A DNA stretch of 64,000 nucleotides from a virus. The notes beneath the pieces are model-generated. The model did no database searches. It saw nothing but the letters and a program-made list of their open reading frames with translations, and was not told the DNA's origin. The position numbers and the translations under genes are program-made. Where the stretch lies: the IMG/VR virus record IMGVR_UViG_3300040786_000066. One strand, written 5' to 3'. Below, piece after piece: positions 6,104 to 61,250 of this stretch (within the stretch, counting starts at the first letter, position 1; every line of letters begins with the position of its first letter).

Positions 6104-7286
6104 TTATTCAAGTCGTTGAATTTATCTGTAAAGAATGCGTGTTGTTAAGCACCTGGCTTCTCACGTACTCCCTAACTTTTAAGGTCCCCAGACTTCACTA
6201 GTTTTTCTACATTTTTAGTAGCCGCTAAAGTAAAGATCATTTCATCTCTTTCAATCTCATACTTCTTTTCACAGGAGTTATTTTTGCATTTAACTACCGG
6301 CATGCCCTTATCTCCTAATTTATTGAACTCTTCGTGAAGGACACCATTAGGTATAATGTTCTCTGTAGCAGTGATGCTACCTCCACGCTTAAACTTTTTT
6401 GGCGGTTCTGCGTTTAGTACTTGAAGTCTTTTACAGAAGTGCTAGGCTTAACTGAGTAATGAAAAGATCCTCCAGTTTTTCTAGATAAATACCCTGTTAG
6501 ATTAGCTTCCTGAGTGTTTCCTGTAGTTGGAATACTTAATGCTAATGAAGCGTCTCTACCAGCTAGCTCCGCTCTTCTCTTAGCAGATGCTGCAGATGCA
6601 AACATTCTATCTTGTTCACCAGTAAGTGTTCTGGCTTCCTTCTTCATTTTCTTAGACTTAAATAGTCCAGAAATAACTCCGACTACTGCTCCTACTCCTG
6701 CGCCTATTGCGGTTCCAATTCCAGGCATTATGGTAGTCCCTAAAGAAGCCCTGTACCAACACCTTTAAAGTACTGCTCATCAAAACGCCTTTCTTCTCTT
6801 TTTTAGTAAAGGTAGCCGCGTCGCCATCTCCTTTGCCTATAGCAGATCCTAACATTCCTATAGCAACACCTGCAACACCTGCTGCTCCGGCCATATCAAA
6901 ACTTCCTCCTTTAATTTTAAGGTCCTTCATAGGGCTTGCTATTGAAGTAGAAGCCGCTTGTTTACCAAACATTCCGGCAGCACTGTTTTATTAAACGCTC
7001 CTTGAAACTTGTTTGCGCCAAAACCGCCTGAAAACTATCCACTGGAGCTGAGAATTGCTTAGCCACTCCTGTATTAAAATTATTAGATGCAGCTTTAGCA
7101 TACCCGTCTAAAGGATTTCTAGGGCTCTCATTCCAAAAGGAATACTAGGCTGCTTGCCAAATAAATTAGCGTCTCCAAATTGGTACCCTATAGGTTTAAC
7201 CTCCTCAGCTGAAAACGCGTTTCCTGTTTGAAATTTAGGGACCTTATTCCTTGTGTACATAAGGCCCGGTTTTTTGAATTTATCAT
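6104..7286 (-). CDS. glycine-zipper-containing putative cargo protein, frameshifted
   Basis: PGIGTAIGAGVGAVVGVISG segment. C-terminal NIIPNGVLHEE...YEIERDEMIFT motif of the kind seen in crAss-like virion proteins. Confidence 0.5.
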
Positions 7287-48089: not shown

Positions 48090-50270
48090 TAATTTTCGGT
48101 TTCTACTGCTGCGTCGGATCTATCCAACTAAATGCATTACTTTGTATTTCTTCTACTTCTTCCAAGGCTATTGACTTAAGTTCTGCCTGGCTGCTTACAG
48201 GTATCTCGCCCCATCTTTTCGACCGCTTGCGTCTTTGTATATTCCAAACATGGTCAGTTCCTTCGAAGCAGAACCTGATCCTGAAGCAGGCCTTCCCATT
48301 CCATCCTCATCCGCCAGCTCTGCCAATCCACAGGCTACTACGAAATCGAATTTAGTTCGATTGTCAGAAGAGTAATCTCTCATCTGCTCTAACACAGGAG
48401 GGTACAGTATCTGGTAGTAGTAGTCATCAATATAATCTGCTAGCTTCTGATCCTGATGGGCAATCACAGCTGAAGTAGCCGGTGTTCCAAGTAGTGTGCT
48501 AGCCTTATCTCCGCTTACATTGGATCCAATAGCAATCGATGGTCGTTGCAAAATTCTCCAAAACTGTTTCTTCATTCTGAAAAAGCAATAATATTTATCT
48601 TAGTGTATTCCACGTTAAGCCTGGCATGGTAAAGCATTGAAATCTTTAGCACGTTTTCATAATCCCATCGCACGTCATCTGATCTCTCGTTATAAAAGCA
48701 AACGTATAGGTTGCTGGTTCTGGAAAACATGTTGTTAGAGAATCGTTTCTTTATAGCACAAGCGAGCTTAGAGCCGTCCTTCACTAGCGAATCCTTTTGA
48801 CCCTGGTCAATGCTGTCGACCCCGCCGACATACAGATTGTTGCTTATAGATCCGTCAGGCTCCTTATCAGGCAGCTCAATTATTATAATTTTTCCACCGG
48901 CACATTCTACAAAGTTTACCCTGTAATTGTTCCATCAGGCAACATGGTATACTCTAAGCGCCCTTCCATCCAAGGCTTCTTCACCATGGTCTTTAGCTTG
49001 GTGAGCTGCTCGGCAATTTTATCTTGGTTGAATATGTTGGATCCTTTGATGGTAAACACCTCTTCCAGAGTAATTGGGAATTCCTGTAGTTCCTGCATGT
49101 AAGCGATAGGGTCTGTTTCCAAAGCTTTTCTAGAGTGGATAAGCTGCATCATTGCTAGCTCAATGTTAGGCACACCGCTAGATTCCCAGGTTCCCCGTAC
49201 TTTAAGAAAGCTGGAATAAAGATCCCTGTTTCCTGTCCCCATTCGTTGATCACGAGTAAGTTAAAACCTCTTGGATTAGTAAAACATCCTCGGCATCCTT
49301 GTTGTTTACAGATCCACCGGTACCTGTCATCATCACGAAGGCCTTCTTAATTGCCCCCATCACTTTCCAAGATCCTTTAGATTGTCCTAAACAGTTTTTC
49401 AGTGAGCCTTTTCCGGGTGAGAAGGAAAAGATGCAAACTCTTCAATATGCTGGAAGTGCGGACGACGCCCCTTGTAACGTTGGGATTGTCTGCATAAGTA
49501 ATTCTTCTAATTTCATTTTCAGATCCTCTTACTTGAAGGTCATTATTGGTATCGTAGTATTCAGTACCAGCAACAATCTTCTTGTTAGACTTCACCATCT
49601 GGTGTTGCTTAAGCCCGGTACTCTTTCTCTATGGCCTTAATAGTGTCTACCACTTTGTCCCAAGCTTCCTCGACAATTGGGTCAGAAGTTGCAGAGACTA
49701 TAATTTCCTGCTTGTCAAATATCATGTAGTACCAAGCCAGCACAGAGTCAGTGATAAAGGATTTACCAATACCCCTTCCACCCATAATAGCGGCGTACTC
49801 TTTCAGCTTATACCCTTTCCAAAGCAGATCAAAATATATCTATCAATAGTAGAATACAATGGACGCCCTGTTTCAAAACCTTCCATTGGGTTACCGTTGT
49901 CATCGTACACAGGATTTCAAAATAAACATGATCACCCAAAACAAAACATAGGATTGTAGTATTCTGCCCCTATATAAATACCTTCTTTCATGACCTTCAT
50001 GAGCTTTGTATAATAAAGCTGCATCTCGTAACTTTCCGGATGCACATCAGGCTTGTCTCTCAAAGCAAGTATAGCCTTGGGTATTGGACGGTATACTAAA
50101 TAATCTTTTAAGCGCACCTCTTCCTGGCCCGTACGAATGCCCTCTAGAAACTCCTTGGTCTCAGTGACATCCCAGTGGCCATTCATAATAGTGCCATCCT
50201 CTCCATAAGTAAGAAAAGGAAGTTTTGTTTTGCTATATCTCTCGTAAGAAGTCTTTGCGCTAATTCTCAT
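48090..50270 (-). CDS. terL: terminase large subunit, frameshifted
   Basis: Walker A IMGGRGIGKSF (~49757-49790), MMTGTGG coupling motif, nuclease VGGVDSIDQG, and QEFPITLEEVF. Confidence 0.9.
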
Positions 50271-50845
50271 ACGTGTCTGTTAAACGGCTCCTCTCTAAAA
50301 CTGGTTGAGACATCCCCTTTGTTTCTACCTGCTCCAACCGTTTTGGCAATAGCGCTCTGCAACAATACCTTACTCTTCATAATGGTCTCCAGCTTAGCGA
50401 AGGCATTAAGCATGATAGGTAAGTTAGAGTTGAACTTTGTTTCTCCTGAATTAGTCACAGACTCCTCTATGATAGGAATGTTATCATCTAGCATCGTAGA
50501 TATCTCGTCTATTTTTTTATCGATAGACTTAAGCATACGTATTTCAGGAGTACTGTTGTACATCAGGAAAAGGTCTGTAGCCAATTTGAATTTATCTTCA
50601 GTTGCCTTAGGAACTTTGAGCTCCTTCCAAGTGCTTTTGTTAAACACCGCCCGCAAGATATTCTCTTCCAGTACTCTAGCATCCAGCCCAGTGAAAGGGT
50701 TGTCTGGCTCTGTAGAATGGGTGTAGTAAATCACCTGAAGGAACTTGGGTCCGTCAGCACAATTAAATAAATCCTGCAAGTCCTTGAACAGAACAATGTT
50801 GGGGTCGAGAACTAGCTTTCCACTTGTTATGGTGAATCTAATCAT
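50267..50845 (-). CDS. conserved protein upstream of terL (terminase small subunit candidate)
   Basis: Intact 192-aa helical ORF overlapping the terL start. Confidence 0.5.
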   Translation of the reverse strand: MIRFTITSGKLVLDPNIVLFKDLQDLFNCADGPKFLQVIYYTHSTEPDNPFTGLDARVLEENILRAVFNKSTWKELKVPKATEDKFKLATDLFLMYNSTPEIRMLKSIDKKIDEISTMLDDNIPIIEESVTNSGETKFNSNLPIMLNAFAKLETIMKSKVLLQSAIAKTVGAGRNKGDVSTSFREEPFNRHV

Positions 50846-51107
50846 TGACTGGTTTTTTGATAATGTCCTTTGTGGAAAACCTGCTTTTCTGAAGTTTCAG
50901 ATCAGAGGAAAACCATATACAAGTTACTCCTAGCAAAGCCACTCGATCGCCTGAGGCAACCGGAAGTTTATCTATAGATTGTACAATCATAAAAGGCCTG
51001 TTTGGTATGTCGTGTTTTACCATTACGATGTCTCCTGAGGAGAAGAATATTTTTCAATTCTAGGTCTGAGGGCCTTCTCCTCTACGGCTGTAGTATTTTC
51101 CATATCA
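50838..51107 (-). CDS. small YodC/DUF2158-like protein
   Basis: FSSGDIVMVKH..P.MIV...VTCIWFS pattern. Confidence 0.45.
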
Positions 51108-51109
51108 TA

Positions 51110-51998
51110 TTAAATTAGTCTGTAAGGGTTCTCCAGGTAGACGGGGTCTTTGGATGAATCGTATATTTTATCTTTGTAATGTTTATATTTTGCATGCAGC
51201 ACGCCGTCGGTAGTAACCCAGATCTTCATCGGGATCGTGTGAACAAGCTCGTAGCCTTCTGGAGTAACAACCATAAGTCGTTTTGTTTTCACCTTCCTGC
51301 CAACGGCGCCCATCAAGTACCTGTATATCTCAAGCTGTATGCTGTAATGAGAGTAGTTTGTGTCCATCAATCTAGAGAACGGCCCGCTCATCATTTTATA
51401 CTTCCGAGTAAATCTGTTGTAGTAACTCTTTCTCTCTAGCGGTTCTTTAATGAATTTGTAATCTAGAATGTGGTACTCTGTAGAGTCTTCATTACGCATC
51501 AGTAGATCCACCTGTCCCGCCATTCTAAGCTCTAGAGAGTATACTAGAAGCTCTGTTTTCGCCAACACATATTTTGATGTCAGCTCTTTGTGTAGATCCT
51601 CCACAAAGCGTGTCTTGGCCAAGTCAGGCGCCTGCATTCCCCATTTATTAAACAAGGACTCACCGTAGCCGTGCAGGGTTGTCCCCTCAAAGAAGCCATA
51701 TCCCCAAGCATGTCCCAGGCAAAACAAGCTGCTCCCACGTAATGGAGAGCTTGTGACGTATCACATACTTCTTAGCCTCTGGTATAGTATCAAACTCCTC
51801 ATGAAAATCCTTGATCAATCCTGTCGGAGATCTGAAAGCATACTTGCTATTTTCAAAGGTAAAACTGTATTGTCCTGCGCATCATCCTCATGATAATACT
51901 TATGTCCTTCTTCAAGAAAGAAAACCCGTCCGTTTATGGACAGGTTTTCACTCTATATCTTTGCAGAACATTTTGGGTCTCCAGTCTTCTATTAACAT
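51110..51998 (-). CDS. PD-(D/E)XK (Cas4-like) nuclease, frameshifted
   Basis: GTTLHGYGE, AGQVDLL, ILDYK and HYSIQLEIYRY motifs. Confidence 0.8.
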
Positions 51999-52032
51999 AT
52001 CTTCTTATTTTATTCTTATTTACCAGCTAATC

Positions 52033-53078
52033 TTAGCTTAGTTTATTTTGTTGGGCAATAAAAATACCGCCATTTCTTTTGTAGTCAAATTCAACTGGGG
52101 CTTTGTCAAGCTCTCTTTGTGCTTTTCTGTACGCTCTTTTCTCCTGTCTCATCTCTTGCCTAGATTGCTCTGGACGAGCAATTCTTATAGGGTCCATAGA
52201 TCTATCAGTAGTAGCTGGCTTTTTTAGTGCCATAATCTGAGCAGACACTTCTTTATCCCTTGCATTAATTGCAGCAGTGGTTTTGATTCCTCTAATTCCG
52301 TCAACGTCTTTGTCGGTAAATCCAAGACTAATCTGTGTTTGTTTCATGGCCTCAAGTGCCGCCATAGATTTAGTTCCCATGATTCCGTCTACTTTCACAC
52401 CTAGCGTACGTTGTATCATTTTGTTTCTAGCAACCTCAGGAGAATCTTTACCGGCTCCCTCAGTTTTAGTTTCCCAGCAGCGGTCTTTTCTTTAGATCCA
52501 GTAGGCATATTTTTCTAACAATCTCTTCTTTTGCCGCATCTACTACAGCTTTACGATTAGCCGGATCTACATATGAAGGTATCTTAGCGATAAAATCTTT
52601 AGTGGCCTGTCTGTCAACCGGTGCTACATAGCTAGGAATTTTATTTATGAAGTCTTTAGTAGCCTGTCTGTCAATCGGTGCCACATACTTAGGGATCTTA
52701 GCAATAAAATCTTTAGTAGACTGCCTATCAACAGGATTTACATACTTAGGTATTTTATCTATATATGCCTGGGAAGCTAAAGCCTGCTTTTCTTTACCGT
52801 CTTTATAAGAAGGTATCTTAGCAATAAAATCCTTAGTAACTTTACGATTAACTGGTGCTACATAGCTAGGAATTTTATCTATATATTAGCGGCGGCAGCT
52901 TCTTTGCTAGATTTTTTGGCCCCAACAGGTGTGATCGATATTGATTAGAATCTTGTGAAAGATCCTCCGGCTGATAAACAAGAGGCCTGCCTTTACCACC
53001 AAAATTACGGGGAGCTATTGGAATGATATTTCCCAATTGAAATGCCTGGACAGTTTTAATATGTTTATAATAACTCAT
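52033..53078 (-). CDS. protein with 19-aa tandem repeats and C-terminal peptidoglycan-binding-like motifs, frameshifted
   Basis: (APVDRQATKDFIAKIPSYV)n, then IQRTLGVKVDGIMGTKS and VDGIRGIKT. Confidence 0.6.
52555..52885. repeat. 57-bp imperfect tandem repeat, about 5-6 copies
   Basis: Recurring atcttagcaataaaatctttagt...ctgtc units. Confidence 0.8.
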
Positions 53079-53120
53079 CTTGAATACATGTATTGATTAA
53101 AATTATTTTTTTATATACTA

Positions 53121-53580
53121 TCATAATACTTTATTTAGTAATAAAAATACCTCTGAGCTAAACTCCTTGCTCTTTAAATCCACCTTTCTTAATCTAGAGT
53201 CTTTATTTTTATTTTCTTTTATGATACTAGAACCCAAGGTAGTAGACAAATAAATTATATAATTGTTCTTAATATCGTCAACAGCGCGCTCAGAAACAGA
53301 CAGCTTGCTGCCTATTAAGAGCACGTCTTCTTTATTGCCAGGAAGTATAACAGACTTAGTTCGCTGCACATATCCCAACATAACTAGGACTTCAAGGCCT
53401 ACAAAATAGTACCCAAACTTGTTCTGTGATAGCTCCCATTCTGTGGTGGGGTCGTTAAGTCTAATGTTTTGTTTTCAAGAAGGTCTTGCACCAAAGAATG
53501 CAGGGTGACGTAAGGAAGGAATACTCCTTTGTCCACGGAGGCAATAAACTCGTCAAACTTCCTCCAGGGCGAAACCATTC
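53121..53580 (-). CDS. hypothetical protein, frameshifted
   Basis: ORF 53121-53381 plus an upstream fragment. Confidence 0.4.
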
Positions 53581-53589
53581 AGTTGCCCC

Positions 53590-53942
53590 GTTTAGTTTAT
53601 AGTCTTCGTTAACTATTCTGTTATCAGCGTACTTCGCGTGCAGAATATCTTCAACGTCTTTGTTGACTAAGGCTATTGGAGTACTTTGCCCCTAACACAC
53701 AGGCTCTTAAACCTGGCATGAGGGTCAGCGGTCTTGCCTATCTTATAAATATTTTTTTGAATGTCTTTAAGAACGTAGGTGTATACAAGCTTGTTTTCGT
53801 GTGATTCGTAAATAGCTTTCTCCTGGATATCGATAATATCCTTCTTTAATCCTTTGTTCTTTGCGCGTTCTGCAGACTTCTTTCTTTCGTATGAATCTGC
53901 GCTATATGTTTTGGTTTCTTCACTTGAGTCGTGCTTTAGCAT
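53590..53942 (-). CDS. GIY-YIG-like (T5orf172/MUG113-type) domain protein
   Basis: YTYVLKD...IYKIGKTADPHARFKSL. Confidence 0.65.
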
Positions 53943-54680
53943 CTCAATCTTTTAAGCAACACTTCAATACGTTTGTTAAGCACTACGATCTCTTCCTCAA
54001 AAGAAGCAAAGTTTTCGAAGATGTTAACTTTCGCACGAAGTTCCCTGTGCTCTAAGAGAAGTTTTTCTTCAGAATCCAACATAATGCTAGACACGTCTAG
54101 GATCTGAATCCCTTCGCCTATAGCACTATCTAACAAGTATCCCTTGGAATCTAAGTCTTCCAGAATTAGGTTTAAAGCCCTTCTCGATACACCAGTTTCT
54201 TTAACAAGAGCGGTAATGTTGCTGATGTTTGAAATTCTTTTTCTCCTAGCATGATGACTTTTATTATAAAAGCCTTCACGGAATGGGAGAGGTCCGGTCG
54301 AGAAATGAATGAGTAGGTTATGATTTGGTATTTGATTCGTAATTTGAGAATATTGGAAACGTAAGAAGTGCCTATTTTGTTTCTGAAAAGGAAGTTATTA
54401 TCCCTTTATCCTCCAGGTCTTTAATGCATTTTCTTACAGTGTTCTTGCTCAACCCCAGTACGGTAGTAAATGTTTCTAGTGAAAGAATTCTCCTGTCACC
54501 TCCTAATTTATAAGTAGAATCCAGAAACTGGTCTATATCTATAAAAGCCAAAACGATTAGGCTTTTTGAGTCTATGTTATCGAGCTGGAAAGGAACCCTG
54601 GAATGTTTTCCAAAAGCTGTGTCTTCCTTACCTCTGTGGGTTTCTATCTTTATCTTGTTGGTCTTATTTACTGCTGTCAT
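53936..54680 (-). CDS. winged HTH DNA-binding protein(s), probably joined to the downstream GIY-YIG module
   Basis: VLGLSKNTVRKCIKDLEDKGII and KETGVSRRALNLILEDLDSKGY HTH segments. Confidence 0.55.
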
Positions 54681-54806
54681 TTCTTATATATCTAGTGGAT
54701 AAATGTACTGAAAATATGCATGATCCCTCTCTAATAATACACTATTTTAATGTAATGCACCCTCTGGATAAAGTTCCATGAAAACTCTGAAAAATAAATA
54801 CTGCTT

Positions 54807-54839
54807 TTGTTGCAAGGCAGCATATTTTTGCTATATTTG
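54807..54839 (+). promoter_or_regulatory. Bacteroidota sigma-A-type promoter, tRNA operon 1
   Basis: -7 box TATATTTG (54832-54839), with TTTG/TTG upstream. Confidence 0.65.
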
Positions 54840-54844
54840 TAATC

Positions 54845-54913
54845 ATGAAAGCAATACTACTTCATATAGAACAACCACGACCGCTACTTTGTAACGGAGG
54901 AACTTCTGTATGA
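54845..54913 (+). CDS. attenuator leader peptide 1, MKAILLHIEQPRPLLCNGGTSV
   Basis: Intact 22-codon ORF between promoter and terminator; codons CTA, CAT, GAA, CAA, CCA, CCG match the downstream tRNAs. Confidence 0.75.
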   Translation: MKAILLHIEQPRPLLCNGGTSV

Positions 54914-54951
54914 TAGGCTGATTAAATAAAAATCGTCTTAGACACATATAC

Positions 54952-54980
54952 AAAATCCTTCTAGCAATAGAGGGATTTTT
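54952..54980 (+). terminator. attenuator terminator 1
   Basis: AAAATCCTTCTA-GCAA-TAGAGGGATTTTT, 6 nt before tRNA-Pro. Confidence 0.85.
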
Positions 54981-54986
54981 GCATTT

Positions 54987-55062
54987 CGGGGTGTAGCGTA
55001 GCCCGGTCTATCGCGCCTGCTTTGGGAGCAGGAGGTCGCAGGTTCAAATCCTGCCACCCCGA
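54987..55062 (+). tRNA. tRNA-Pro(TGG)
   Basis: Cloverleaf; CCTGC-TT TGG GA-GCAGG; GGTTCAAATCC. Confidence 0.95.
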
Positions 55063-55067
55063 CAAAT

Positions 55068-55142
55068 TCAGTAGATACAGTAATTGGAAACTGGTAACTG
55101 GCTGGGTCAGTGCATGGAAGGTTCGAATCCTTTCTACTTGAC
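55068..55142 (+). tRNA. atypical tRNA-like gene, anticodon unresolved (possibly Pro-GGG with a collapsed G run)
   Basis: D arm CAGT/ACTG, T arm GAAGGTTCGAATCCTTT, anticodon arm ACTGG-CTGGG-TCAGT with a 5-nt loop. Confidence 0.55.
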
Positions 55143-55180
55143 AAAGATGTTTATGCTTTTAACTTTAAAATAAAGCGCAC

Positions 55181-55252
55181 GGCGCCATCGTCTAACGGTT
55201 AGGACAGCAGGTTTTCATCCTGCAGATAGGAGTTCGATTCTCCTTGGCGCTA
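55181..55252 (+). tRNA. tRNA-Glu(TTC)
   Basis: GCAGG-TT TTC AT-CCTGC. Confidence 0.93.
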
Positions 55253-55257
55253 CAAAC

Positions 55258-55328
55258 TGGAGTATGGTGTAATGGTAACACAACTGTTTTTGGAGCAGTC
55301 GTTTTGGGTTCGAGTCCCGATATTCCTA
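55258..55328 (+). tRNA. tRNA-Gln(TTG)
   Basis: ACTGT-TT TTG GA-GCAGT. Confidence 0.9.
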
Positions 55329-55337
55329 CTAATACAT

Positions 55338-55423
55338 GGTGTTTGTTGCAGAGCGGTCAAATGCGCCAGGTTGTGGTCCTGGTACCCGTAAGGGTTTCGT
55401 GGGTTCGATTCCATCATTCACCC
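55338..55423 (+). tRNA. tRNA-His(GTG) with long variable arm
   Basis: CCAGG-TT GTG GT-CCTGG; G-1 and C73; extra hairpin ACCC-GTAA-GGGT. Confidence 0.85.
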
Positions 55424-55643
55424 AAAATACAATAATATGTTAGTAGATAAAAGAAGAGAAGAGGCCTTGAAAAGTCTGTACTACCTTGGGGAATAGCTGT
55501 TCAGATAAAAGACAGGTGCTATGGCAAAGTTATTGATAATTATAGGCATACAAATACCTGTATTGCTGTTATACCTTCAGATAAGACTTGTGTTGAATTC
55601 TATAGAATAGAGGAACTGGCAGTACAATAATAATAATGAATAA

Positions 55644-55725
55644 GCCTTCGTGATGAAATTGGTAGACATGCTAGATTTAGGATCTAGTGTCGCAAGACGT
55701 GTTGGTTCGAGTCCGACCGAAGGTA
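55644..55725 (+). tRNA. tRNA-Leu(TAG)
   Basis: CTAGA-TT TAG GA-TCTAG; class II variable arm. Confidence 0.95.
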
Positions 55726-55779
55726 CATATTAAATATTTAGTGATTCATAGTTCGAAAATAATTTACTATATTTGAACT

Positions 55780-56251
55780 ATGGAAAATAAAAAAAAGCTG
55801 TAGCAAGTAGATTAGGTTTTGTAGTAACAGAAGAAGGAGTTGCATACAATAAAAAAGTATTGTAGGATACAAAGATCCCAGAGGGTATTGCAGATTTACT
55901 TTTAAGCTAGTAGGAGTTTCAATAAACATAGCTATTCATAGGCTGCAAGCTTTTCAGAAGTATGGAGACCTCCTTTATGAAGAAGGTACAGTTGTTCGAC
56001 ATTTAAACGGTGATCCAGGAAGTAATGCTTGGGACAATATAGCAATAGGCACTATGTCAGACAACATGTTTGATATCCCTAAGCAAATAAGAATTCGAAG
56101 AGCTGAGCATGCGTCTTCTTTGTCACACAAGCACGATCACGTTAAAATTAAACAGTGGCACATAAATAACGGAGCATCTTATAAAAATACAATGATAGAA
56201 TTTGACATATCAAGCAAAGGCACATTAAATTATATACTAAAGAAAAGTTAA
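55780..56251 (+). CDS. HNH homing endonuclease, frameshifted
   Basis: IHRLQAF..YG...VVRHLNGDPGSNAWDNIAIGTMSDN motif with a C-terminal HTH-like segment. Confidence 0.8.
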
Positions 56252-56257
56252 ATAAAG

Positions 56258-56289
56258 TTTGGTAGTTAATACAACTTGTATTACATTTG
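56258..56289 (+). promoter_or_regulatory. Bacteroidota sigma-A-type promoter, tRNA operon 2
   Basis: TTTG (56258) - 20 nt - TACATTTG (56282-56289). Confidence 0.7.
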
Positions 56290-56318
56290 GCTTTCAATAT
56301 AAAACAAAAACACTTTCA

Positions 56319-56399
56319 GTGAACACAGCAATAAACATAGCAGTAGTAATTATGACCGGGGCCGATATGGCTTTGGAAGGATCTACGTGGTATGGCTAA
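56319..56399 (+). CDS. attenuator leader peptide 2, (M)NTAINIAVVIMTGADMALEGSTWYG
   Basis: GTG-start 26-codon ORF. The in-frame upstream KTKTLS suggests a true ATG near 56299 lost to an indel. Codons match the Ala/Ile/Gly/Met/Asp/Thr/Val tRNAs downstream. Confidence 0.72.
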   Translation: MNTAINIAVVIMTGADMALEGSTWYG

Positions 56400-56424
56400 A
56401 TTGAAAGCACATATAAAATAACAC

Positions 56425-56460
56425 AAAGATCCTTCTAGAAATAGAGGGATCTTTTTTTTT
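56425..56460 (+). terminator. attenuator terminator 2
   Basis: AAAGATCCTTCTA-GAAA-TAGAGGGATC-T9. Confidence 0.88.
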
Positions 56461-56530
56461 AGGTAAGCTCTATTGGACGAGCACCTGTTTTGCATACAGG
56501 AGGTTGCGGGTTCGGGTCCCGTCTATTCCA
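56459..56530 (+). tRNA. tRNA-Ala(TGC), 5' acceptor strand incomplete in this sequence
   Basis: CCTGT-TT TGC AT-ACAGG; T arm intact; the 5' end merges with the terminator T run. Confidence 0.75.
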
Positions 56531-56537
56531 CAATAAT

Positions 56538-56610
56538 AGAAGTATAACTCAGTTGGTAGAGTGCCCGCCTGATACGTGGGTTGTCGTAGGTTCGAGCCCT
56601 GCTACTTCTA
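56538..56610 (+). tRNA. tRNA-Ile(GAT)
   Basis: CCCGC-CT GAT AC-GTGGG. Confidence 0.92.
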
Positions 56611-56622
56611 CAAAATTTAAAC

Positions 56623-56697
56623 GCAGCAATCGCATAGTTGGTCAATTGTACCTGACTTCCAATCAGGATATCGTGAGTTCGAATCTCACTTGCTGCA
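56623..56697 (+). tRNA. tRNA-Gly(TCC)
   Basis: CCTGA-CT TCC AA-TCAGG. Confidence 0.92.
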
Positions 56698-56707
56698 CAG
56701 AATATAT

Positions 56708-56780
56708 TGCGAGATAGAGCAGCGGTAGCTCGTGGGTTTCATAAGCCTAAGGTCGTGGGTTCGAATCCCACTCTTCGCAA
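56708..56780 (+). tRNA. tRNA-Met(CAT), initiator-like D arm
   Basis: TGGGT-TT CAT AA-GCCTA; GAGCAGCGGTAGCTCG. Confidence 0.88.
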
Positions 56781-56785
56781 CAAAT

Positions 56786-56859
56786 GGTATTGCAGCATAT
56801 TGGCGTATGACGCTCCCCTGTCACGGGAGAGATTGAGGATTCGAATTCCTTCAGTACCG
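56786..56859 (+). tRNA. tRNA-Asp(GTC)
   Basis: CTCCC-CT GTC AC-GGGAG; G73. Confidence 0.9.
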
Positions 56860-56865
56860 CAACAT

Positions 56866-56938
56866 TCCCGAGTAGCTCAGTTGGTAGAGCGCTTGCCTTG
56901 TAAGCAAGATGTCGCAGGTTCAAGCCCTGTCTTGGGAT
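56866..56938 (+). tRNA. tRNA-Thr(TGT)
   Basis: CTTGC-CT TGT AA-GCAAG. Confidence 0.95.
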
Positions 56939-56942
56939 CTAT

Positions 56943-57017
56943 GCAGCAATAGCTCAGTTGGTTCAGAGCGTCTGGTTTACACCCAGAGGGTCGTAGGTTC
57001 GAATCCTTCTTGCTGTA
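56943..57017 (+). tRNA. tRNA-Val(TAC)
   Basis: TCTGG-TT TAC AC-CCAGA. Confidence 0.93.
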
Positions 57018-57022
57018 CAAAT

Positions 57023-57095
57023 CGCCCCATAGCTCAGTAGGTAGAGCACTCCCCTCATAAGGGATAGGTCACGAGTTCGAATCTCGTTGAGGCAA
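57023..57095 (+). tRNA. tRNA-CAT (elongator Met or lysidine-modified Ile2)
   Basis: TCCC-CT CAT AA-GGGA; standard D and T arms. Confidence 0.85.
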
Positions 57096-57115
57096 CTAAT
57101 TATTTTAACAAATAC

Positions 57116-57146
57116 TTGCACCGTATGTGTTATAGTAGTATATTTA
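57116..57146 (+). promoter_or_regulatory. Bacteroidota sigma-A-type promoter, tRNA operon 3
   Basis: TTG (57116) ... TATATTTA (57139-57146), one mismatch to TAnnTTTG. Confidence 0.55.
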
Positions 57147-57162
57147 CAGCTTAGAAAATAAA

Positions 57163-57234
57163 ATGAAAACACTTTCTTGTTCATATAATAGTTTTAATTC
57201 TTGGTTCTTCGGACCGAGCAAGACTATCGTATGA
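57163..57234 (+). CDS. attenuator leader peptide 3, MKTLSCSYNSFNSWFFGPSKTIV
   Basis: Intact 23-codon ORF; codons 5-16 are all Ser/Cys/Tyr/Asn/Phe/Trp, the tRNA set downstream. Confidence 0.8.
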   Translation: MKTLSCSYNSFNSWFFGPSKTIV

Positions 57235-57264
57235 TAAAGTGAACAACATATAAATCATCGAATT

Positions 57265-57295
57265 AAAGTCTTGCAGAAATGCAGGGCTTTTTTTT
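57265..57295 (+). terminator. attenuator terminator 3
   Basis: AAAGTCTTGCA-GAAA-TGCAGGGC-T8. Confidence 0.88.
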
Positions 57296-57304
57296 GTTTA
57301 ATAA

Positions 57305-57389
57305 GAGAGTCCAAAGTCAGCTTGGATCTGGCAGCCGGACTGTAAATCCGGTCTTGTTACGGGGAGAGGTTCGAGTCCTCGGGTTCTCA
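57305..57389 (+). tRNA. tRNA-Tyr(GTA)
   Basis: CCGGA-CT GTA AA-TCCGG; long variable arm. Confidence 0.85.
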
Positions 57390-57396
57390 CAATAAA

Positions 57397-57484
57397 GGAA
57401 GGTTAATCCAAGTTGGTCTAAGGGATGCGGTCTTGAAAACCGTTAGTCGTAATTGGCGTGTGGGTTCGAGTCCTACACCTTCCG
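57397..57484 (+). tRNA. tRNA-Ser(TGA)
   Basis: GCGGT-CT TGA AA-ACCGT; long variable arm; G73. Confidence 0.92.
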
Positions 57485-57488
57485 CAAC

Positions 57489-57576
57489 AGAAGAATGTCC
57501 GAGAGGCTGAAAGAGCTCGTCCGCTAAACGAGTGTGCATGGAATATGGCACCGTGGGTTCGAATCCACTTCTTCTA
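57489..57576 (+). tRNA. tRNA-Ser(GCT)
   Basis: CTCGT-CC GCT AA-ACGAG (C at position 33); long variable arm. Confidence 0.82.
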
Positions 57577-57583
57577 CAAATAT

Positions 57584-57656
57584 TCTTGTGTAGCTCAGTG
57601 GTCAGAGCGTCCGACTGTTAATCGGAGGGCCGTAGGTTCAAATCCTACCTCAAGAG
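57584..57656 (+). tRNA. tRNA-Asn(GTT)
   Basis: TCCGA-CT GTT AA-TCGGA. Confidence 0.95.
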
Positions 57657-57662
57657 CAAAAT

Positions 57663-57736
57663 ACGCTGGTGTCCGAGTGGTCCAAGGAAGATGTCTGCAA
57701 AACTGAAGAGCGTGAGTTCGAATCTCACCCGGCGTT
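57663..57736 (+). tRNA. tRNA-Cys(GCA)
   Basis: Loop CT GCA AA and U73; anticodon stem weak as sequenced. Confidence 0.8.
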
Positions 57737-57814
57737 CTAGAATCTACAGACTGTAGCGTGCTGTAGCTCTATCTTGTTGCCAATAAAATAAGACCTAATT
57801 TTAAAGTAAACATA

Positions 57815-58145
57815 ATGAATACAAGTACAAAACAAACTGAAAATTTAGCCAAATGTAGCGATAAGTCAAAACCATTGTTAGTGGCAGTTACTTGTCAATT
57901 AACTGAACGTGGTTTTCAACTAAAAACAGAGATAAAGTTAATGATGATAGGTTAGGTATAAAATTATCTTTTACAAATGAAGTTGGTAAATATGTTGAAA
58001 TTTACGATGAAGATACTTATTTGCATATTTTGCATTATGGATTTGATGGCAAATATTTACCTATTGGGTTTGATGTTTTATTTATAAAGATATTAAAAAA
58101 TATGGCGCGTTTTTAGACGGTATTTTGGCTAATTGCCTGTAGCAC
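57815..58145 (+). CDS. small hypothetical protein inserted in tRNA operon 3, frameshifted
   Basis: MNTSTKQTENLAKCSDKSKPLLVAVTCQLTERGFQLK...; AT-rich. Confidence 0.45.
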
Positions 58146-58211
58146 TTTGCTAAACGATATCAACTTAAGAGTGAGCCTTGTTATGATTGTCAAAAGTTGC
58201 TACAGTAAAAT

Positions 58212-58284
58212 AGTCGCCAGCATAATGGCATGCAGCAGGTCTCCAACACCTTGCATGGATGAGGTTCGATTCCTCAGGTGATTG
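58212..58284 (+). tRNA. tRNA-Trp(CCA)
   Basis: AGGT-CT CCA AC-ACCT; TGAGGTTCGATTCCTCA; G73. Confidence 0.8.
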
Positions 58285-58287
58285 CTA

Positions 58288-58358
58288 AGGAAAGTAGCTC
58301 AGGGTAGAGCACCAGATTGAAGATCTGGGTGTCGGTGGTTCGAGACCACCTTTTCCCA
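58288..58358 (+). tRNA. tRNA-Phe(GAA)
   Basis: CCAGA-TT GAA GA-TCTGG. Confidence 0.88.
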
Positions 58359-58592
58359 CTTATAAACCTACTGTTTATTTAATAAGCTAACACGTACTAA
58401 AAACTTGAGTTAAATTTTAATAGTATAAATTTGGTTATTATATTAATTTTAGTATATTCGTAGTCCCAAACCATTTGTTATGTATATGCTATTTTTTACT
58501 GTTGGAGTAGTTATAGGTATTATTCTATATCGTTTCTTTGCGACGATCCAAAATTAGCAAATAACCAGACAAAATCAAACCTACTAAAACCA

Positions 58593-58619
58593 AGCCCTGC
58601 CCCAAGCAAGGCTTTTTTT
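58593..58619 (+). terminator. intrinsic terminator closing the tRNA region
   Basis: AAGCCCTGC-CCCAA-GCAAGGCTTTTTT. Confidence 0.65.
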
Positions 58620-58687
58620 ATATGCCTCGGTTTCTGCTTTCTTTAAAACCTGATTTTAGTATTATAATAAGTACTAGCACATTCGAT

Positions 58688-60990
58688 ATGATATACTATA
58701 GCAAACAAAAGTACAGGCGGCACAACAGGGTGCTATATTACTAAACAACGATGCTCGATTGAGAAACGCTGTTCTAAGAAACGTAAGGACTATGGGCGGA
58801 CCAATGAAAAAACAACTCCGGTAACGCCTTTTAAAAGCCTCTATAGCCCCTTTAAAACAAAGTTTTCCTTCTAGAGTAAACGAGTCCACAAACGTTCCAA
58901 AATAAAGCCGCTCCTTACAACTCAAGAAGCAGCAAATAGCTTGACTGTTAAAGAAAAGCCGGAGTAGCAAAAGCCTACTTAAACGAGTGGATGGCTTCAC
59001 CCAGGTATATGGAAATGATCAAAACAAGCGCCCCTAAAACTTCCAAAAATAACGGAAAGAAGACAGGCTGATTTATACTCCGCGCAAGCAAGCTACATGC
59101 ATAGAGATAAAGGAAACACTGCTGCTGACTCCAGAAATTCGGACGGCAGTATTCGAGTATTCCGAAAAGGTGTAGGTACTAACGGTACTCTAGTGCATGA
59201 GATGTCGCACTCAAGCGACAGAACTGGCCGAAGTACAGGCGAAAGGCTGCCCATAACGGATGTAAAAGAATAGCAATGTTCTCCAATAGCGCTTATAGTG
59301 CAGTTAATAAAATAGTTCCAAATGAAAGAGCTGAAAGAAGAAGATGGGTATCTTATGTCACAGACCCTACAGAAACAAGAGCGCGATTAAATGACGTCCG
59401 ATTTCAGTCTAAAGAGCGCAGTATTTACGACCCCTAAGCAAAAAAGTTACTCCTGAAATATATGACAATATGAAAAGCCAAAATTTTGAAGATGAACAAC
59501 ACAGTGGCTTCGATGCTTTAAAACAGCTGAGAGGAATCTACTCAGACAAGGAAGTAATAAACTTATTGAACACCGTATCTGAAAATAAAAGAAAGCCCTT
59601 CCAAACAACATTGAACCACGATACTCATGATCTACTATAACAATAAAAGCGCCTCTGCCAAGTTACAGACCGGAGGTCAGACTCCCAAAGAATTCCAGAC
59701 AGAATACATCCAGTCCTCTAAATACGCAGCGCGACTTAAGAGTAGCGGATATCAAGCCATACCTAAAGTAGTTGAAAAAGACTTGGCCAAGTAGAACAAA
59801 CCGGGCTAAACAAATATAGAAAACACTGGGTGAGGCCTTGATGTCTTTCAAGTCCCTGCAGGCACCGGTAGTCATTTCGATAATTCAAGAGTCAACATAG
59901 ATTATAAAACTGATCTACATGATTTAAAAAAAGGATATCCAGGAATGACCATGCCTAGCCCAATAGAAGTAGAAGCACATGAGTTTTCTCATCCAAGTGT
60001 AGCCGATCTAAAAGGCTTATCACAAGATAATATCATGAACGATTACGACAACAGACAGCTTATTGGCAGAGGCCAGCGCCTTCCGTACGTAAACGACCAC
60101 GATAAAAGAGCCAGTGAAAACAAGGCGGACATCGACGCCTACAGGTACATGCTGAAACAGAAAGGTGTACGACGCCGGCAAGGAGACCTTCACGAAAGAA
60201 CATCTGAAAACAATTCCAAGAATTTCAGTCGAGAACGCCTTCAAAGAAACTACTCTGATAAAAATCTGATCTGGCTTATGAACAACGTGGCTTCATCTCC
60301 GTCAGTGCCTTCGGCTTCGCCGCCTGTCGCGGGATCGAGTCCTCTTGTACCTTATAATAATTCGCAGCGCGTAATGAAAGCCGGCATGCAAATGGATTGG
60401 GATGCAGTTAGAAATGTTAACGACAACGGCCTTGTGCAAACTGCTAAGATATTTGACCCTACTGGAATATCTTCCTATCCCGATGTGTACTATGCCTATA
60501 AAGATATGGTTGCAGGAAAAGGGTCCGCTACAAATTTGGGACTTAATATATTAGAGCTCTACCGGTAATAGGTAAAGCCAAGACTATATTTAGAATGGCC
60601 AAACTAAACAGGGTTGGAAAACCTACTGTAGGCTTAATAAAAGCAATGGATGGAGTAGCGTCAATAACCTCAAGCATAAACAAAGTTACCGGGGCACCAG
60701 TAGCCTACGCAAGAACTCTTTCAGGATCGAGCAATAGGGTAGTTCGAGGTGCGTCCTACTTAGCAAAAGGAGCTGATAATATAAGTACAAACCTCGCTAA
60801 AAAATTAAGGCCTACTGGAGAAAAGTATTCTTATAAAGTAATTACCAACTCTGACTATAAAACCTAGGAGTAGACGTGCTAGATACAGGAACTTTTACAT
60901 GACTTAAATGCTGCCGTATCTACAGCAGTGCCTACAAAGAAATCACTGATCGATAAAAATAAAAAAATTGTTTTACAGACTCGAATAATG
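58688..60990 (+). CDS. large putative virion protein(s) with two HExxH zincin-like motifs, frameshifted
   Basis: LVHEMSHSSD (~59190) followed by YVTDPTETRARL; EAHEFSHPS (~59975); late-promoter motif at 58657. Confidence 0.5.
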
Positions 60991-61024
60991 CTGAGAAAGC
61001 ATATACTAACATAAACCAATAACA

Positions 61025-61250
61025 ATGAACAAATTTGAAGAGGCAATACAAATAGCCAAAGGAGTAACTAACTTTCTTAGAATGAAAGCAAATATAGCCA
61101 ACAACGACATAGAAGAGCTGCATAAAAGAAGGTATGCAGTATGCAAGGTGTGCGAGTTTAGAAATCAGATAATGATAAATGCAATTCATGCGGATGTCCT
61201 TTGCAATTAAGAACGCGCTCCTGAAACTGCCTGCCCAAAAGAGTTTTGGA
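61025..61250 (+). CDS. small Cys-rich zinc-binding protein, frameshifted
   Basis: RYAVCKVCE...CNSCGCPLQLRTR..ETACPK. Confidence 0.6.

Follow-up and report, generated by a model that had tools for sequence, protein, structure and literature searches.

A probable leader-peptide attenuator ahead of a phage operon of eight tRNA genes, with sensor codons that match the tRNAs downstream

Leader peptides that respond to more than one amino acid are known from the multivalent attenuators of enterobacteria, where the ilvGMEDA leader contains Ile, Val and Leu codons and the thr leader contains Thr and Ile codons. A leader peptide can also control part of the translation machinery, as in the pheM-pheST system of Escherichia coli, in which the target is an aminoacyl-tRNA synthetase operon and Phe alone is sensed. 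The tRNA genes carried by phages, for their part, are usually viewed as being constitutively expressed and as compensating for codon usage or for tRNA loss. Here we describe a locus in a 64,000-nucleotide stretch of viral DNA (IMG/VR virus record IMGVR_UViG_3300040786_000066; the whole stretch is referred to below as the window) that is, in our judgement, probably a ribosome-mediated (leader-peptide) transcription attenuator placed before a phage operon of eight tRNA genes, in which slow decoding of the sensor codons would raise transcription of the tRNAs. Unlike the ilvGMEDA and thr leaders, this locus would have tRNA genes and not biosynthetic enzymes as its target, and a full-text literature search, with most subscription journals outside its coverage, returned no published case of leader-peptide attenuation of tRNA genes.

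We call the locus attenuator 2, its leader being leader 2, and comparable units (attenuators 1 and 3, with leaders 1 and 3) precede the other two tRNA blocks of the same array. Its parts are promoter-like boxes, a short open reading frame (ORF), a competing 1:2 helix, an antiterminator in which an exactly matched 11-bp helix encloses a nested one, and a strong terminator directly adjoining the first tRNA gene (Table 1). An earlier, sequence-only reading had proposed both a leader-peptide attenuator with sensor codons matching the downstream tRNAs and a start codon damaged in the assembly. The first proposal was supported by the alternative structures, by ribosome-position modelling, by conservation in four lineages and by the way codons and tRNAs change together, and the second, a damaged ATG, was not.

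Source sequences and the tRNA array

Open reading frames are fragmented across the whole window because bases are missing from the assembly. The IMG/VR contig L003 is 99.2% identical to the window over 12.4 kb (window 48706-61050), with 5 substitutions and 72 gap openings, and nearly all of the gaps are bases absent from the window, mostly in homopolymer runs, at a rate of about one base lost per 170. The window is thus an error-ridden copy and L003 the accurate one; an HNH gene is intact in L003 and two tRNAs that are garbled in the window are clean there, and across 56124-56459 the two sequences show zero differences. Stop-codon reassignment was also considered as a cause of the fragmented frames and was rejected, as no reassignment yields long frames.

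Leader 2 was compared in four lineages, three of which are closely related: the window (as L003), L040/L041, L052 and L007, the neighbouring protein in the last three being 86%, 80% and 61% identical, respectively, to that of the window. The phage of the window is also represented by three further contigs of noisy assembly, L048, L049 and L051. A metagenome scan combined with contig look-ups by neighbouring proteins supplied only L040/L041 and L052 as extra copies of leader 2, most contigs ending at the tRNA array, and pattern scans of IMG/VR with the terminator and with the GTG context returned only the window lineage and L007, the remaining matches being due to chance. A search of the INPHARED phages gave no relative for either the leader region or the adjacent helix-turn-helix (HTH) protein; Phass-1, the sole INPHARED tRNA match, carries its tRNAs without preceding leader-terminator units.

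The window holds about 20 tRNA genes within 54987-58359 on the plus strand, arranged in three blocks that are roughly sorted by first codon letter: mostly CNN plus Glu in block 1, ANN and GNN in block 2, and UNN plus Asn and Ser(AGY) in block 3. Several tRNAs that were missed by ARAGORN or are damaged in the window were recovered in L003 or with relaxed thresholds, namely a second Pro(UGG) at 55070-55143, Ala(UGC) at 56460-56533, Cys(GCA) at 57663-57736 and a weak Trp(CCA) at about 58210-58285.

Protein genes lie within and beside the array. The HNH homing-endonuclease gene mentioned above (55780-56251, corresponding to 7119-7598 in L003) encodes 159 amino acids, is frameshifted in the window and is preceded by a TATATTTG box of its own. 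Its neighbours are tRNA-Leu(UAG) on one side and the putative attenuator-2 promoter on the other, and in L036, L037 and L007 this place is taken by tRNA-Leu(UAA) and tRNA-Arg(ACG). On the minus strand of L007 (5905-5365) an HNH gene follows the 5' half of a tRNA-Tyr that ends just past the anticodon loop, and a complete tRNA-Tyr comes next; this arrangement resembles the trace that an endonuclease insertion with target duplication would leave. A 109-aa ORF inside tRNA block 3 (57815-58145; 9165-9494 in L003) is conserved in 31 database proteins, none with a recorded family. Finally, a 260-aa protein encoded on the minus strand at about 53900-54680 (5229-6011 in L003), divergent from attenuator 1, gives faint helix-turn-helix matches and is 52-86% identical in about 20 related phage lineages, whose assemblies often break beside it, at the tRNA array.

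Promoter-like boxes, leader frame and RNA structures

The sequence-only reading had the unit extend over 56298-56460; its 5' limit has to be moved outwards, to a pair of promoter-like boxes at 56258-56289. In four of four lineages a TAnnTTTG box lies 28-29 nt 5' of the GTG codon at which the leader ORF begins, with a TTTG box (window, L040 and L052) or a GTTG box (L007) 20 nt further upstream, and the same TAnnTTTG box also precedes leaders 1 and 3 and the HNH gene. From the position of these boxes the transcript would be predicted to start at about 56296, approximately 22 nt 5' of the GTG at 56319. Two lineages have 29 nt from box to GTG and two have 28 nt, and since its length varies by 1 nt between lineages this stretch is noncoding. 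A Shine-Dalgarno motif was found before 0 of 48 phage genes, the upstream regions of which are A/T-rich like the leader UTR; the absence of this motif together with A-rich upstream regions points to a host of the Bacteroidota type.

Table 1. Features of attenuator 2 and the tRNA block that it precedes, in window coordinates.
Feature	Position	Strand	Description
Promoter-like boxes, Bacteroidota type	56258..56289	+	TTTG at 56258-56261, 20-nt spacer, TACATTTG at 56282-56289
A-rich 5' UTR of the putative leader transcript	56296..56318	+	Contains an in-frame 'KTKTLS' stretch
Leader ORF	56319..56399	+	GTG to TAA, 26 codons; start, frame and stop position kept in 4 lineages
Sensor codons 2-18	56322..56372	+	Thr, Ala, Ile (ATA, ATT), Val, Met, Gly, Asp and two Asn
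Region 1, anti-antiterminator strand	56337..56348	+	Lies within the sensor codons; pairing seen in minimum-energy folds
Hairpin inside the ORF	56356..56376	+	RNAalifold consensus of 4 lineages (columns 64-88), changes keep pairing; 3' strand overlaps the start of region 2
Region 2, antiterminator 5' strand	56374..56384	+	11 pairs with the terminator 5' arm
Nested antiterminator helix	56390..56414	+	GTATG with CATAT; spans the stop codon
Intrinsic terminator	56425..56460	+	5' arm 56425-56437 (region 3), GAAA loop, 3' arm 56442-56454, T-run from 56452; found by terminator scan
Regulated tRNA block 2 (regulation proposed)	56460..57096	+	Ala(UGC), Ile(GAU), Gly(UCC), CAU, Asp(GUC), Thr(UGU), Val(UAC), CAU; ARAGORN and Rfam on window and L003

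All four lineages have the GTG at 56319 in an identical ten-letter context, and this codon aligns with the ATG of the paralogous leaders, which start M-K/N-T; in L040 and L052 the residues K-T-L follow the GTG. As a start codon it has a weak context, with T at -3. The leader ORF measures 26, 27, 26 and 27 codons across the four lineages, and at 26 codons leader 2 matches leaders 1 and 3 in size. Its stop stays at the same aligned position although the codon itself is read as TAA, TAG, TAG and TGA, and indels within the ORF are of whole codons, the UTR and the post-stop spacer having indels of 1-2 nt.

In the reading made from the letters alone, a dropped G had removed an ATG 18 nt further upstream, and the leader would have been a longer peptide beginning MKTKTLS. 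The rate at which the window loses bases is a point in favour of such a start, as are 11 letters upstream of the GTG that are common to the start of leader 3. The KTLS stretch that leader 2 was said to share with leader 3 is indeed real at the DNA level, where these 11 letters coincide, but it sits in the 5' UTR and is not coding. Comparison with L003 restored no G at 56295-56305; this contig, which is free of the deletions that affect the window, has the same letters at the proposed break, and L048, L049 and L051 also have no ATG at 56298-56305. In L040, L052 and L007, moreover, the upstream frame is closed by an in-frame stop with no start codon between it and the GTG, and the UTR differs by 1 nt in length. 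We give the upstream start next to no credence and take the GTG as the probable start of the leader.

The minimum-energy fold of the whole leader has a predicted energy of -52 kcal/mol (z = -4.46), and 0 of 200 shuffled sequences were as stable. All three pairings that had been pointed out in the sequence-only reading are present. Region 2 (56374-56384) is fully complementary to 56427-56437 in the terminator arm, giving 11 pairs with one G-U, the short GTATG/CATAT helix (56390-56394 with 56410-56414) nests inside this long-range helix, and the leader segment suggested as a competitor, 56337-56348, pairs with 56383-56395 in the minimum-energy fold. The terminator has a 13-pair stem and then a T-run, which is 8 nt long in L003 and 9 nt long in the window. 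Calculated energies are -20.3 kcal/mol for the 1:2 helix, -16.7 to -17.0 kcal/mol for the terminator and -22.0 kcal/mol for the whole antiterminator, the order of stability being the 1:2 helix plus terminator (about -37 kcal/mol), then the antiterminator (-22.0), then the terminator alone (-16.7). Such a ranking is what one would look for in an attenuator.

When these pairings were projected onto the four lineages, 100% of the terminator cells remained paired, and so did approximately 90% of the antiterminator cells (88.6% for the region 2 helix) compared with 30-57% when the partner was slid. The nested helix retained 93.8% of cells paired where the sequences are alignable, and in L007 only 6-7 antiterminator pairs hold. 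Double-sided compensatory changes in the antiterminator and terminator were absent among the four leader-2 orthologues. Covariation is found between the paralogous units: the region-2 strands of leaders 2 and 3 each fit their own arm type only, with duplex energies for leader 2 of -15.9 kcal/mol with its own type of terminator arm versus -6.6 kcal/mol with the leader-3 type, and for leader 3 of -13.1 kcal/mol with its own type versus -3 to -5 kcal/mol with the other. Attenuators 2 and 3 also have an ACATATA motif at the same place. In the 64 kb of the window the terminator motif occurs at attenuators 1 and 2 only (0.01 expected), and GNRA-capped terminators are a feature of 14 of the 14 units that we collected. 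The hairpin inside the ORF may serve as a pause or timing hairpin.

Sensor codons and the tRNAs of block 2

The tRNA-Ala(UGC) gene starting at 56460, garbled in the window, is the true first gene of block 2. In L003 it begins at the base right after the T-run, and because it directly adjoins the T-run there is no room for a separate tRNA promoter. Codons 2-18 of leader 2 correspond closely to the tRNAs that follow: block-2 tRNAs read 12 of the 17 if wobble rules are applied strictly and 15 of the 17 if they are relaxed, and together the codons cover 8 of the 8 tRNA species of block 2, compared with 0 of 5 in block 1 and 1 of 7 in block 3. Leader 2 of L007 covers all 10 species of its own block and none of the 7 in its block 1, and each of the six leaders that we examined covers all tRNA species of its own block. 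Each block-2 tRNA is represented by just one to three sensor codons. Some leader codons lack a cognate tRNA in the block, such as AAC, which occurs twice in the window, and TTA, TCA and CTT, which occur in L040 and L052.

The simplest rival account is that these features have come together by chance, the hairpin being an ordinary terminator or a 5' processing hairpin and the ORF an untranslated accident. Short ORFs occur everywhere in this A/T-rich DNA, and the TAnnTTTG motif is not enriched over the whole window (75 found versus 70 expected), both of which would suit such an account. Yet among 52,172 stop-free 17-codon stretches in the six frames of the 64-kb window, leader 2 is the sole place that reaches this match to block 2, and in L007 the leader is likewise the sole place matching its tRNA block this well. 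Start, stop position and frame have been kept in four lineages while the adjoining noncoding parts take 1-nt indels, a promoter-like element stands between the upstream gene and the hairpin, and all three tRNA blocks are preceded by the motifs of the cassette, which are otherwise absent from the window. Taken with these observations, a chance origin is highly improbable, and we continue with the attenuator as the preferred reading.

Differences between lineages in the content of the block are accompanied by differences in the leader. A tRNA-Lys(UUU) gene lies between Ala and Ile in L007 and L052, and both of these leaders read GAT-AAG; there is no tRNA-Lys in the window and in L040, where the leaders read GAT-ATG and GAT-ACG, the second codon in each being one substitution away from AAG and read by a tRNA of the block. 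Similarly, tRNA-Arg(UCU) is found in L007 only, and AGA is found in the L007 leader only. At attenuator 1, the leader has TTA codons if, and only if, the lineage has tRNA-Leu(UAA), as seen in 6 of 6 lineages, and CGN codons accompany tRNA-Arg(ACG) in 5 of 6. These co-changes amount to a handful of events in a few, related lineages and are not a statistical result.

The sequence-only reading took two ATA codons in the leader as fitting a lysidine-dependent Ile2 identity for the second CAU tRNA of block 2; this may be so, the features observed speaking neither for it nor against it. Leader 2 contains ATA codons in each of the four lineages, and every block has two or three CAU tRNAs. The cloverleaf of the tRNA(CAU) at 57023-57096 has a C1-A72 mismatch in common with its L007 counterpart (6933-7005), and BLAST against annotated E. 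coli tRNAs yielded nothing informative on its identity. As a side observation, four of the five CAU tRNAs inspected have a C1-A72 or C1-U72 mismatch atop the acceptor stem, which recalls the bacterial initiator tRNA, other initiator hallmarks being absent.

The composition of the leader raises a second rival account, namely that the ORF encodes a working small hydrophobic peptide with a terminator of its own, the tRNAs being derived from constitutive read-through or from upstream transcripts. Being rich in Ala, Ile, Val, Met and Gly, the peptide could resemble a membrane segment, and the length of the ORF is conserved. In the four lineages, however, the N-terminal two thirds keep their composition only, and not the order of the residues; a sensor would be expected to behave in this way, and a working peptide would not. 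In the 3' third the nucleotides are conserved even at synonymous sites, a pattern that fits a constraint on the RNA, and leaders 1 and 3 have the same layout with markedly dissimilar, non-hydrophobic compositions that match their own tRNA blocks. We consider a working peptide very improbable, and favour the leader as a sensor whose message is read during its translation.

Proposed switch and comparison with known systems

In the mechanism that we propose, a ribosome would translate the 26-codon leader while RNA polymerase moves on. If all sensor codons (2 to about 16) were decoded fast, the ribosome at the end of the ORF would cover region 2 and the terminator would form, so that the terminated transcript would end at the U-tract, one base before tRNA-Ala. 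With 25 nt between the stop codon and the terminator arm, a ribosome positioned at the stop would cover region 2 and not the terminator. If a charged tRNA were scarce, the ribosome would wait at any one of the sensor codons, covering region 1 and freeing region 2, which could then pair with the emerging terminator 5' arm (-22.0 versus -16.7 kcal/mol) and allow read-through into the eight tRNA genes. If there were no translation, regions 1 and 2 would pair with one another and the terminator would again form. Since it holds at least one codon per tRNA of the block, the sensor would work as an OR gate, and the released tRNAs would feed back on their own synthesis. We infer both leader translation and regulated read-through from the sequence and its comparison across lineages.

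Ribosome positions were modelled by masking a footprint that reached 15 nt upstream and 14 nt downstream of the first A-site base and by folding the nascent RNA before the terminator 3' arm, the outcome depending on the footprint assumed. In the window, the modelled probability that the terminator 5' arm is held by upstream sequence is 0.81-0.99 with the A site at codons 1-15 and 0.55 at codon 16, falls to 0-0.01 at codons 17-26, and rises partially to 0.50 at the stop. A drop at codons 16-19 is common to the four leader-2 lineages under this masking, with a similar drop in other units, and it comes just as the matched codons run out. The AAG codons of L052 (codon 17) and L007 (codon 18) lie at the edge of the responsive stretch at the chosen footprint.

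These results bear on a third rival account, a translation-independent switch in which the choice of terminator or antiterminator is made through binding of the leader RNA, either by a protein or by the tRNAs themselves, as in T-box, TRAP or PyrR regulation. Alternative terminator and antiterminator structures are common to all such systems, and the weak GTG context leaves some doubt as to translation of the leader. On the other hand, an Rfam search of 54000-59500 at E up to 1 identified no T-box or other leader family (His, Leu, Thr and Trp leaders included), with only tRNA matches and sub-threshold noise. A single leader would also need to recognise 8-10 different tRNAs, a conserved frame, start and stop would be needless for an RNA-only sensor, and the modelled response drops where the matched codon run ends. 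A switch of this kind is very unlikely in our view, and a translated leader remains the reading that we prefer.

On this preferred reading of a translated attenuator, the phage probably makes the block-2 tRNAs solely when the codons that they read are slowly decoded. If this is true, the phage gauges how fast each codon is decoded and produces tRNAs as they are needed, with the product feeding back on its own sensor, and the tRNA operon would be a new class of target for a textbook mechanism. The attenuator would then offer a direct experimental handle on why phages carry tRNAs, and the one-codon-per-tRNA design could find use as a compact, natural biosensor for the pool of tRNAs. Attenuator 2 adds comparative evidence in that gain or loss of a tRNA in the block is accompanied by gain or loss of a codon in the leader. 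Although speculative, and on balance doubtful, it is tempting to go beyond dosage homeostasis and think of the three attenuators together as a real-time monitor of the decoding capacity of the host, a counter-defence sensor through which replacement tRNAs are switched on block by block exactly when host tRNAs are lost. If so, that loss might come about through host shut-off or tRNA-cleaving defence nucleases, and the sorting of the tRNA blocks by first codon letter would reflect which tRNAs fail together.

In its logic attenuator 2 would stand closest to leaders already described while differing from each of them. It resembles trpL in its four-region logic, in a stop codon close before region 2 and the terminator, and in the termination expected without translation; trpL differs in that it senses a single amino acid through two tandem codons, acts on another target and has no homology to attenuator 2. 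With the T-box it shares a link between tRNA status and the choice of terminator or antiterminator in a 5' leader, but a T-box needs no translation and makes direct contact with one uncharged tRNA by means of its specifier codon and T-box sequence, whereas attenuator 2 has a conserved ORF. The pheM-pheST leader is similar in being a leader-peptide attenuator that acts on a component of translation and responds to the supply of charged tRNA; it regulates the charging enzyme, whereas the product of attenuator 2 would be the tRNAs, such that the molecule sensed is the molecule made.

Like the ilvGMEDA and thr leaders, attenuator 2 would have a multi-amino-acid leader in which 1:2, 2:3 and 3:4 pairings decide the fate of an intrinsic terminator and a stalled ribosome leads to read-through. 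Unlike them, its sensor covers 7-10 amino acids (across the attenuator-2 leaders) with one to three codons for each and no codon runs, in which respect it is weaker as a sensor than hisL or pheL, which have such runs, and it is borne by a phage, in a host type without Shine-Dalgarno use, with no sequence relationship to them in Rfam.
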